Source: a virus (taxonomy: Duplodnaviria; Heunggongvirae; Uroviricota; Caudoviricetes). From it: a DNA stretch of 5,264 nt. Shown here in pieces: positions 1 to 3,000 of this stretch. The position numbers were made by a program. Each line of letters opens with the position of its first letter. Within the stretch, counting starts at the first letter, position 1. The stretch lies in IMG/VR virus record IMGVR_UViG_2706794493_000014; one strand, 5' to 3'.

Positions 1-3000
1 CCGATACCCGGAATGTCCGGGTCTTCTTCCGGTTTGTTCGTCGGCACATTCACCCCGTTCTCATCCGTCATGAACGGTACGAAATGGATATTTTTTTCCG
101 TTTTGTTTTTGTAGCTGCCGTACACCGTCTGGTAGGTGGCTTCGTTCTTCTGCTTCCAGAAATACGTCGTGTCCCCGCATATCCAGGGAACACCGTCAGC
201 AGAGCCACCGACGCACTGACCTGCCATATCCGCCAGGTCTGCACGGAATTTATCAACCAGCGCACCAAACTGTGCTGCGTGATTTGCCGGCGTACCGCCA
301 AAATCAAATTCCCCCTGCATCCACACCACGGCAAACAGCACATTTTTCGGGTTCTTCTTCAGTGCTGCTTTTGTTCGACCGATAAGGTCCTTATACAGCG
401 GCTTGTCCACCCCCCAGCGGGTTGAATTCTCCGAAGCACCACTCGCGTCACTGTATGTGCCATCAGCTCCGGTGGTGAACGCTGAACCACCACGACAGCA
501 CGGAACCAGCAGAATGCCCGCATTCGCCGGTATAAACGGCAGCAATTTTTTGGCGATATGCAGCCCCTGCCCCACGGTTCCGTACTGCCCCTTTGACAGG
601 TCCGCTTTCGGATGGTTAAGACGGCTCATGTCCTGCACATCATGCAGACAATGGTCCGCCGGAATGATGTCGTTATATCTGCATGCTGCACCACCCGGTG
701 TCACCGTACTGCGACGCGCCAGTTGCTTAATACGCGGCTCCGGACGGTCATATGTCTCCGGCAGCGGAAGACCTTCACCATACGACATGCCGTTTGACTG
801 CCCTGCCAGAACCACAACAAAGTAATACTCCGGGGCTCTGGTGGCACTGACAGCCACCGCCTTACCCTCATTACCGGTCACCGCCACTGGTGTGGTGACA
901 TCACCTTCCGCCGCAATGGCCTGCATCAGGGTGTAAGGCGTGATGGCCACCGGACTGCCAAATGGCTGCCAGCCCTCCTTCAGTTTTTGTGTCAGTCGTT
1001 CAGCAAGGTCTGACGGCGATGCCGCCCTGACCACATCGTAGTGTTTAAATGTCATAACCTCTCCTGCCGCCAGCAAAGTAATTATCCGGAACACACAATC
1101 ATGTAACACATAAAAAACACGCTATAAAAAAACCATGTCTCTTATATAACAAAAAAACGCCGACAATTTAAAATGCCCTCTTATTTTAAACAAAGAATAA
1201 ACGACACCAGAAAAACAACTCAGCCTGACAGATTGCTTTCAAAACATCACCTATAATTTATGGCATCATTTAAAACCTTAAGAAAATAAGGAAAGCAAAT
1301 GAACTGGATAGTGATTGACACGGTAATCCAGCCAGCATGTGGCATATCATTTTCAGCCATATGGTGTAACATAAAATTAATATTATGGTATCAGTCAGAT
1401 ACCTTCCTCCCTCCGGGCTGTATTTTTACACCAACCCGGACAGGCGTAATACTCAATAATAAAGAGCTCCCCGTCACCATTTACAACGTGGCCCCATTTA
1501 ATAAAAACGTCTGGAATTTAATTAAAAACAGCCAGGAGTGCCCTGCAAACACAGGAAATATCACAGATAAGTGTTTTAATCATCGCTGCATTCTGGAAAT
1601 ATGCCCATACGGGCGAAAATAACAGAATCATTCAGATAAAAAGCCCCTCCGGAGAGGGGCTGACACTGCGTATCTGTATCATCATGTACATGGTGCCGGG
1701 TGCCTCCCGGTGAGTTCAGTCCGGTGTCCCTGAACCCGCGTATCTCGCTCCAGGTTGTCGTCAGAGATGACACCTTATACACCAGTCGCCCCTCCGCACA
1801 GGGGGATTCACCATGCGAATTTTTTTAACGAATGCTCAGTCTGACAGGCAACTGTCAACTGACTGAATTGTGACACAGATTACACTTGTTACCCACATAC
1901 CACGAATCAGGTTATGCCTCAGTCATTATTAAACTGCACTTCAGCAAATCCGGAGCCTGATTCACAGGTACTGGATTTGATTGTGACAGTCATTCCTGTC
2001 AACTGAGCACTTTGCAGTAACGGTTGCAGATTCCAGCGACTGGTCCAGTACTCTTTTCCGGCCACTTTTACTGTGAATGTATCATTCTCATTATACTTGG
2101 AAAACTCAATTTTACCTTTAGCGCAATCCGCCGCCATTGCATTAACAGAAACTAATGCAAATAAAACCGCCATAAACATCTTCTTCATACTTAACTCCTT
2201 TATTTACCCGTTGTATATAAAAACTGTGACTTTCTGTTCAGAAACGCTGCAGCTGTATTACTTTCCCATAATGTATTGTTTATTTTTATAACGGGCCTGT
2301 CGCCAGTTATCTGACATTCTGGTTGACTATCTTCATTCACGGCGCGAACAGAACGCGCCCCCTGATGATGACAATTCAGTATAACGGCCACAGTGCCCAG
2401 TATCGCCGATATATTATTAAAGGATATTCTCCCCACTCTGACACCATCCTCTCCCCGATACTCCGGAAGCACATTGCTGATTCGCCCCCAGTTCAGAGTG
2501 AGGTCCACGTCTCCCGGCGTCATCGTATACACAGGAGCAGTTTCAGACAGTGCCTGACGAAATTCTCTCTGTATCTGCCTGAAGCGTAAGGCTTCTGCTG
2601 TGACAGTGACAAAACGCAGAACTGCTCTGGATGCATCTCTGGTCATTGTATTACCACTGAACTCCATTAACGCCAGATATGATGAAACCAGTGAGTGACG
2701 ACTGATTTGCATTCCGGAACGTTCCAGCGCTGCGACACGTTGCAGAGTGGTATAACTGCTGTCCGTTGTCATGGAAACCGTTGTCACACCGGGCACTGAT
2801 ATATGTGTAAAATCTGAAAAACGGTAGAAAGTATTTGTTGCCGTATTAACGAACCCGGCCACATATAAATTATTTTGCTCAATAATCAGACGAAGATGGT
2901 CAAAACGCGCCTGATAGACATCAAGCCCTCGTATATCCACAGCAAAATAACTGCCCGGTGGGGTGTGGTTAATAACAGACACCGATGTGGTCCCCTGAGA

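Follow-up and report, generated by a model that had tools for sequence, protein, structure and literature searches.

The RssB anti-adaptors IraL and IraM are the closest described relatives of the gene considered here. IraL of CFT073 (c1429; Hryckowian et al. 2014, PMC4045071), the closest characterised one, binds RssB and stabilises RpoS experimentally, and its gene lies in a lambdoid prophage, between Q and the transfer RNA (tRNA) genes on one side and a nanS-p (DUF1737) remnant and a holin gene on the other. IraM of K-12 (YcgW/ElbA; 8TWD) is induced by Mg2+ starvation, and its contacts with RssB have been described from a structure of the two proteins (PMC10844676). Here we analysed a stretch of 5,264 nucleotides of DNA from a virus of the Caudoviricetes (IMG/VR record IMGVR_UViG_2706794493_000014), hereafter the window, which contains an open reading frame (ORF) at positions 1299-1622 of the plus strand, stop codon included, in the spacer between the Shiga toxin gene stxB and the esterase gene nanS-p. 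As judged from its sequence, the 107-aa product is almost certainly a full-length member of the IraM/IraL family of RssB anti-adaptors, and the gene represents a third sequence clade of this family, which travels with Stx2c phages and with some Stx2a and Stx2k phages.

The window gene has the same slot and orientation as iraL in its prophage, together with a homologous promoter region, an aligned −10 element and, downstream, the same GC-rich hairpin and a copy of the small RNA (sRNA) STnc100. The two differ in that IraL has 111 aa, with a C-terminal extension of four residues, in that their −35 regions and 5′ untranslated regions (UTRs) diverge by indels, and in that iraL neighbours a DUF3927 gene whereas the window gene neighbours stx2; moreover, IraL has been validated experimentally, whereas the window gene is known from sequence and model. 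K-12 IraM has the 107-aa length, the predicted fold and the C-terminal tail of four cysteines (Cys4 tail) of the window protein, but the promoter regions of their genes are not homologous, DNA similarity beginning at the start codon, and iraM sits beside the end of e14 and ycgX, outside any intact phage late region, and has no adjacent STnc100. A very different product is found at the same site in other toxin phages: AsxR (EcOnc02; Stx2a phage Sp5/933W; Tree et al. 2014, PMC4104026) occupies the slot 3′ of stx2B, convergent with EcOnc27/STnc100 and, like the window gene, transcribed antisense to the late transcript, but it is a non-coding RNA of 51-60 nt acting on the sRNA FnrS, whereas in the window the slot encodes a protein that is predicted to affect proteolysis. 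Finally, the lambdoid-phage morons that are expressed in lysogens (e.g., bor/iss, lom) lie among the late genes and opposite to them, as does the window gene, with a promoter of their own; the window gene also resembles a moron in its GC content, below that of its neighbours, and in a predicted benefit for the host and not for the phage, and iss/bor has the same orientation within iraL-bearing prophages. Morons of the bor/iss type encode an envelope lipoprotein, whereas the window product would be a cytoplasmic regulator of proteolysis. PmrD, the connector between PhoP and PmrA, has a PmrD-like barrel in common with the window protein, which is not a PmrD member by sequence; the partner of PmrD is PmrA, not RssB, and PmrD is not known to have a Cys4 tail.

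The reading frame had been proposed in a first-pass annotation of the window, and we confirm it, from the ATG at 1299 to the TAA at 1620-1622, with 107 aa on the plus strand. That annotation took the product for an orphan, a view which does not hold. Along residues 1-107, aligned with positions 1-110 of the 114 in the profile, it matches the NCBIfam family NF007393 / PRK09919 “anti-adapter protein IraM” with 159.9 bits, above the curated cutoff of 121, and it also matches PHROG 4407 (E=6.9e-63) and, in a phmmer search of the PDB, chain A of 8TWD, which is IraM (E=7.6e-37). Gap-free alignments give 80/107 identical residues (75%) with CFT073 IraL and 70/107 (65%) with K-12 IraM, and the 26 homologues recovered among 5.8 billion proteins all belong to Escherichia, measure about 107-111 aa and are called IraM wherever they carry a name. 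The identification as such is already known, since public annotation says IraM: the exact protein sequence, present on at least 1000 contigs, is UniRef B6UJ23 “Anti-adapter protein IraM” and RefSeq WP_001303568.1 “anti-adapter protein IraM” (gp43 of phage 1717), and several DFAST-annotated phage records name it likewise. The gene belongs to neither of the described subtypes. The iraL subtype, as surveyed by Hryckowian et al., has at least 95% identity of the coding sequence (CDS) to CFT073 iraL, to which the window gene is about 75% identical in nucleotides and 75% in amino acids; the K-12 iraM subtype asks for at least 95% CDS identity plus a K-12-type promoter, and here the identity is about 72% in nucleotides, over the CDS only. 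In the published iraL survey, all reported iraL and iraM matches had at least 95% identity, and the primers for the polymerase chain reaction were placed on coding regions divergent between both genes (PMC4045071), so that a clade with about 75% identity was probably scored as neither.

The predicted fold agrees with this assignment. An AlphaFold2 model built with 20 family members gives residues 1-78 (positions 1299-1532, plus strand) a PmrD-like beta-barrel plus helix, with seven strands within residues 3-66, one helix at residues 69-77 and a predicted local distance difference test (pLDDT) score of about 80-90. The top Foldseek match of the model is 8twd_A, with a target-normalised template-modelling (TM) score of 0.91, a root-mean-square deviation of 1.2 A and 69% identity, followed by the PmrD structures 2jso, 4hn7 and 2rqx (target-normalised TM scores 0.73-0.76, 16-18% identity); a “PmrD-like” fold has been reported for IraM (PMC10844676). 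The structure of IraM with RssB defines 15 contact positions, in three clusters plus Pro66 (PMC10844676): I4, I6, W22, K26 and I42 in the first, T13, C14, F18, W30 and L75 in the second, and I61, Y62, H63 and I64 in the third. Eleven of the 15 are identical in the window protein and K-12 IraM, namely the whole of cluster I (5/5; Ile4, Ile6, Trp22, Lys26, Ile42), three of the five residues of cluster II (Cys14, Phe18, Trp30), two of the four of cluster III (Ile61, Tyr62) and Pro66. Three of the four changes (L75I, H63N and I64V) correspond to the state found in IraL, for which RssB binding and RpoS stabilisation are experimental facts (PMC4045071). The same residues account for the hydrophobic N-terminus which had been read as a possible signal or membrane anchor: the first 8 residues contain no Lys or Arg, so a basic n-region is absent, there is an aspartate at position 7, and the best 19-residue Kyte-Doolittle mean is 1.45. 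The segment is predicted to form beta-strands, the first ones of the barrel, and not a signal peptide or anchor; the N-terminal residues of IraM are beta-strands that touch RssB (Ile4, Ile6; PMC10844676).

The substitution pattern indicates that the ORF is under purifying selection as a protein. By the Nei-Gojobori method, dN/dS is 0.12 against CFT073 iraL (dS 1.15) and 0.10 against K-12 iraM, and the 71 nucleotide differences from iraL are distributed as 15, 11 and 45 over the first, second and third codon positions. A tblastn search found the frame in 46 phage records, in 45 of them intact over at least 80% of its length; all 41 of the 41 Stx2 phages (2c, some 2a, and 2k) carry it full length with 0 stops or frameshifts. 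Homology and substitution pattern thus bear out the first-pass proposal of a true protein-coding gene on the strand opposing the late toxin transcript, with a frame that is conserved and a synonymous bias in its changes (dN/dS 0.10-0.12). Length adds little to the case: when the mononucleotides of the spacer were shuffled, 4.8% of the shuffles contained a frame of 107 codons or more, so that ORF length is weak evidence for a gene.

Upstream of the frame, the expression signals can be placed by comparison with iraL. A Shine-Dalgarno AAGGA (1288-1292, plus strand) is spaced 6 nt from the ATG, and AAGGAAA is kept in the iraL loci of CFT073 and 640R1; further upstream there is a TATAAT (1252-1257, plus strand), with 41 nt separating the hexamer from the ATG. 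Both had been noticed in the first-pass annotation, and both stand. For iraL messenger RNA (mRNA) in CFT073, the 5′ end was mapped by rapid amplification of cDNA ends (5′ RACE) to ACATCACC... (PMC4045071). This end aligns with GCATCATT in the window, and the CFT073 hexamer TATACT, 7 nt upstream of the mapped iraL start, falls column for column over the window TATAAT, which is a perfect consensus and closer to it than the iraL hexamer. On this alignment, the hexamer would be the −10 element of the gene's own promoter, with a predicted transcription start at 1264-1265 (plus strand), placed by homology with the mapped iraL start, and a predicted 5′ UTR of about 34 nt. TATGAT or TATACT occupies the same column in three further clades, P0002 (Stx-linked), that of E. 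albertii and an lpxR-linked one, and a TATNNT hexamer is kept at the −10 position in every phage-borne clade examined. Homology to CFT073-type iraL reaches about 115 nt upstream of the ATG with 67% identity, whereas only 58% of the third codon positions are identical between the two.

A candidate regulatory site lies still further upstream. It is a PhoP-box-like repeat CGTTTA-ttctt-TGTTTA, CGTTTAttcttTGTTTA, at 1187-1203 of the minus strand, with one mismatch to KGTTTA-N5-KGTTTA, about 62-78 nt before the predicted start and on the opposite strand. A perfect match to the box occurs in the Stx2k phage copy and a one-mismatch version upstream of CFT073 iraL. The pattern has 2 matches in the window against 0.13 expected; the other match falls within stxB, a sign that AT-rich DNA readily fits the pattern, and these statistics are weak, so that we regard the site as a lead only.

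Downstream of the frame, between the two convergent genes, stands a GC-rich hairpin AGCCCCTCCGGAGAGGGGCT (1642-1661) of 8 pairs, which is recognised as an intrinsic terminator of the minus strand. Its T-run is on that strand, and the hairpin would therefore end STnc100. The same hairpin is found 3′ of iraL in CFT073 and TO148.

Promoter, CDS and hairpin together form a cassette (about 1161-1665, plus strand), whose limits come from comparison with a Stx2k phage, CFT073 and 933W: homology with the Stx2k phage starts near 1161 and with CFT073 iraL near 1185. In the Stx2k phage, the cassette is placed between stxB and the holin gene, with another left-hand context and no nanS-p, which argues that it moves as a unit. 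It is not in 933W, where homology with the window spans stxB through STnc100 and then ends; before nanS-p, the 933W slot has unrelated sequence in place of the cassette, with AsxR (Rfam, 88.1 bits) encoded on the anti-late strand. Tree et al. described “convergent sRNAs (EcOnc02 and EcOnc27) encoded 3′ of stx2B” in a moron insertion site (PMC4104026). A gene antisense to the toxin transcript had been considered unusual for this well-studied locus; given AsxR, a known convergent antisense gene at this very site in Sp5 (PMC4104026) and detected by Rfam in 933W, convergence with the toxin transcript is the rule at this spot and only the cargo differs. The window itself gives no match to AsxR or AgvB (Rfam RF02703 / RF02702) at E<=1, and the locus is therefore not read as an AsxR/AgvB anti-sRNA. 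The description as a moron-like insert of lower GC, with its own −10 element and Shine-Dalgarno, is upheld: as far as sequence comparison goes, the cassette is a moron of the lambdoid-phage kind, its promoter being a predicted one.

The distribution of the gene links it closely to the toxin. A set of 5426 complete genomes of E. coli contains 236 with its allele (at least 95% nucleotide identity), and the allele is contiguous with stx2B in 232 of the 236 carriers (about 98%). A promoter-plus-CDS query is matched over at least 80% in 235 of these 236 genomes and over only 74% in the remaining one. Stx2c and Stx2k phages carry the cassette, as do some Stx2a phages. Relatives of the gene at 82%, 75%, 68% and 65% identity are all found on the anti-late strand of lambdoid prophages, in the interval that runs from Q to either nanS-p or the holin gene, and some of them have lpxR, a DUF3927 gene or a further Stx2 variant as neighbour. 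STnc100 adjoins iraL in CFT073, TO148 and 640R1, and adjoins stxB in 933W. Since 232 of the 236 copies adjoin stx2B and the slot is that of AsxR elsewhere, the spacer between stxB and nanS-p looks like a place where regulators of host physiology, expressed in the lysogen, are exchanged.

Some of these relatives deserve a separate description. In the sister clade P0002 (82% identical, 111 aa), the gene has the same position beside the other Stx2 variant, whose B subunit is of 87 aa, and a DNA methylase gene sits between the toxin genes and Q. In clade P0013 (65% identical), lpxR, the gene of a lipid A 3′-O-deacylase, follows the iraM-like gene on the same strand; these loci have two lysogen-benefit genes adjacent to each other in the interval from Q to nanS-p. 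As for K-12, iraM maps just beyond the mcrA end of e14, near ycgX (a DUF1398 gene), without STnc100 or a nanS-p remnant, and in CFT073 a different DUF1398 gene, ydfO, is found beside the iraL-bearing prophage. This arrangement would fit an origin of the K-12 iraM locus as the remnant of a lambdoid late region, but is no proof of it.

The seven cysteines of the product, at residues 14, 23, 41, 81, 92, 97 and 102, were correctly counted in the first-pass annotation, and its remark on a cysteine-rich protein points at a real feature of the family. Four of them make up the tail C81-P-x9-C92-x4-C97-x4-C102-P-Y-G (residues 81-105; positions 1539-1613, plus strand), which was delimited from family alignments. 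C81, C92, C97 and C102 are invariant in an alignment of 20 close relatives; among 31 sequences, down to 26% identity, C81, C97 and C102 remain invariant and C92 is kept in at least 90%. P103 is also present in the window protein. The motif CP-x9-C-x4-C-x4-CPYG was derived in the present analysis and is not a published criterion of the family. In IraM, the tail is not part of the crystallised fragment, IraM(1-78), and has been described as less conserved and flexible; the fragment without it forms a stable complex with RssB (PMC10844676). The AlphaFold2 model is uninformative on a metal site, because the pLDDT of the tail is below 50, and a literature search on IraM, RssB and zinc returned nothing concerning the Cys tail. 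Throughout the family, the tail may serve in metal binding, in redox sensing or in stability.

Since the protein belongs to the IraM/IraL family and keeps most of the contact residues, we infer that it binds RssB and raises RpoS, and we consider it likely that it stabilises RpoS in lysogens as a phage-borne anti-adaptor of the IraM/IraL type. In a lysogen, a sigma-70 promoter belonging to the gene (−10 at 1252-1257) would drive its transcription, opposed to and independent of the Q-dependent late transcript. The beta-barrel core (residues 1-78) of the resulting 12-kDa product would bind the response-regulator-like adaptor RssB and so block the delivery of RpoS to ClpXP; RpoS would then accumulate, and the general stress response, with its acid and oxidative resistance, would be increased in carriers of the toxin phage. 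Upon prophage induction, antiterminated late transcription would run through the hairpin and antisense over the gene, which would probably be silenced.

Several observations weigh against this proposal. A sigma-70 consensus scan found no acceptable −35 element and did not call this promoter, which is why the promoter was placed through the mapped iraL start and why expression may need an activator. On its plus-strand side the hairpin has no T-run, and can thus serve as a terminator for the minus strand only. Position 13 carries a change specific to this clade, T13A, with Ala where IraM has Thr and IraL has Ser; and since IraM and IraL bind RssB differently, including the RssB domains that are bound (PMC4045071), the binding mode of the clade is not readable from its sequence. 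The Stx2k phage copy has lost a near-invariant cysteine (C92G). The differences within the clade, 3 synonymous and 4 non-synonymous, give dN/dS values of 0.27-0.67, which come from too few changes to be informative, and in one genome an IS1 transposase is annotated inside the cassette region. Literature searches combining IraM with Shiga toxin, Stx2c, stx2 or prophage, or IraL with prophage, returned nothing on the Stx-linked clade. Lastly, when the product was scanned locally against Pfam-A, no family came up, not even at E<=1. As every homologue of the product carries a precomputed assignment to PF11183 (PmrD family), we discount this last result, which looks like a discrepancy of library, filter or tool version and not like evidence against membership.

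The alternative that survives best accepts a genuine protein of the IraM family, but gives it a different or additional partner, in the way PmrD binds PmrA, or a Cys4 tail that gates its activity by metal or redox state, so that its main role in lysogens would not be simple stabilisation of RpoS. The fold common to PmrD (PMC10844676), the different RssB domains bound by IraL and IraM (PMC4045071), a residue 13 unlike that of both proteins, and four tail cysteines kept down to 26% identity outside the crystallised RssB-binding core would all fit such a scenario. We regard it as unlikely, because 11 of the 15 residues that contact RssB are unchanged, with the IraL state at three of the other four, because the structural matches with PmrD have only 16-18% identity and no PmrD-specific model is matched, and because IraM(1-78) still enters a stable complex with RssB without the tail (PMC10844676).

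A less probable alternative is that of a decaying passenger, that is, an iraL-like gene recently gained, silent or non-functional, and hitch-hiking with stx2. The absence of a recognisable −35 element, the handful of changes behind the within-clade dN/dS, the C92G change in the Stx2k copy, the IS1 in the cassette region of one genome and the partial match (74% of the query) in another would be expected of such a gene. Against decay speak the 235 of 236 genomes which match at least 80% of the query and the 41 of 41 full-length copies in Stx phages, together with a perfect-consensus −10 element that is nearer to consensus than that of iraL, and a between-clade dN/dS of about 0.1; furthermore, the P0002 clade, at 82% identity, has likewise been kept beside another Stx2 variant.

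It is also very improbable that the element works chiefly through its RNA and that the ORF is secondary, whether this RNA modulates the late stx/nanS-p transcript as an antisense, convergent partner or takes the place of AsxR: the element does share its slot and its strand with that anti-sRNA (PMC4104026), and its transcript would fully complement the late mRNA, but the window lacks any AsxR/AgvB match at E<=1, the substitutions fit a protein under purifying selection, and related copies also occur in prophages without stx genes. The last possibility, a chance ORF or a secreted or membrane-anchored cysteine-rich protein, could appeal to the 4.8% of spacer shuffles, to a moderately hydrophobic N-terminus and to the 7 Cys, but is hardly credible in view of the matches to the family hidden Markov model, to the PDB and to the fold, a dN/dS of about 0.1, and an N-terminus with Asp7, no basic n-region and a hydropathy maximum of 1.45, whose counterpart strands contact RssB in IraM (PMC10844676).

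The surroundings of the gene are those of a toxin phage: read on its opposite strand, the window corresponds on sequence comparison to the late-regulatory and toxin region of a Stx2c-type lambdoid phage. All the neighbouring genes lie on the minus (late) strand: the ninI phosphatase gene at 4288-4959, the gene of the Q antiterminator at 3809-4297, three tRNAs at 3255-3495, stx2A at about 2200-3159 and stx2cB, for the Stx2c B subunit, at 1919-2188, the last one placed from its ORF and from annotation in related records. In a genome with an identical iraM cassette, this gene is annotated as “Shiga toxin Stx2c subunit B”, and in phages 2851 and 1717 as stx2cB. At the other end, positions 1-1054 hold the 5′ part of nanS-p, a late-operon gene for a SASA-family esterase, according to the annotation of identical phages. 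The region of the spacer (1050-1920) is 100% identical with phages 2851, LC159 and phi330 and with several Stx2c prophages. A run of 14 N (masked or undetermined bases) at 5047-5060, upstream of the ninI phosphatase gene, breaks the ORFs on both strands.

The spacer itself measures 864 bp, from the nanS-p start at 1054 to stxB at 1919, and two of its properties in the first-pass annotation have to be qualified. It was described as AT-rich, which is right for its left part, with 33% GC upstream of the ORF (1055-1298) and 41% in the ORF, but not for the stxB-proximal segment (1623-1918), which includes the STnc100 part and reaches 51%; nanS-p has 55%. It was also described as non-coding on the late strand, and this is correct for proteins, but the strand carries the sRNA STnc100/EcOnc27 at 1633-1844 (minus; Rfam RF02076, 158.5 bits, E=1.2e-36, gathering score 47), which is thus the late-strand convergent partner of the 1299-1622 ORF and has a literature of its own (PMC12711010, PMC4104026). 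Compared with 933W, the window copy of STnc100 shows a 1-nt deletion and a G-for-A change, at about 1817-1818 and 1830, respectively; read along the late strand after stxB, a T is missing near +103 and a C stands near +90. Both changes appear to be variants which have been tied to missing k-mers predictive of haemolytic uraemic syndrome (PMC12711010). The Stx2a phage EH1910 has iraM together with the 933W state at both STnc100 sites, and the linkage of these variants with iraM is therefore incomplete.

What had been taken for an orphan protein, perhaps a secreted one, encoded antisense to stx2 is thus better described as a predicted regulator of proteolysis. Two cargoes of the spacer can now be compared, AsxR, which acts on the sRNA network, and the IraM-family protein, which would act on RpoS proteolysis. 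E. coli strains that produce Shiga toxin (STEC) and have high RpoS in log phase have been reported to carry no iraL, so that another mechanism must exist (PMC4045071). A third clade located beside the toxin genes, and probably missed by that survey, may be a cause of elevated RpoS and of stress and acid resistance in a subset of STEC, a suggestion which we make tentatively. If RpoS is indeed stabilised in the lysogens, carriage of the toxin phage would be directly tied to the general stress response of the host, and the effect of Stx2c phages on host stress tolerance would be relevant to the persistence of O157 lineages in cattle and food.

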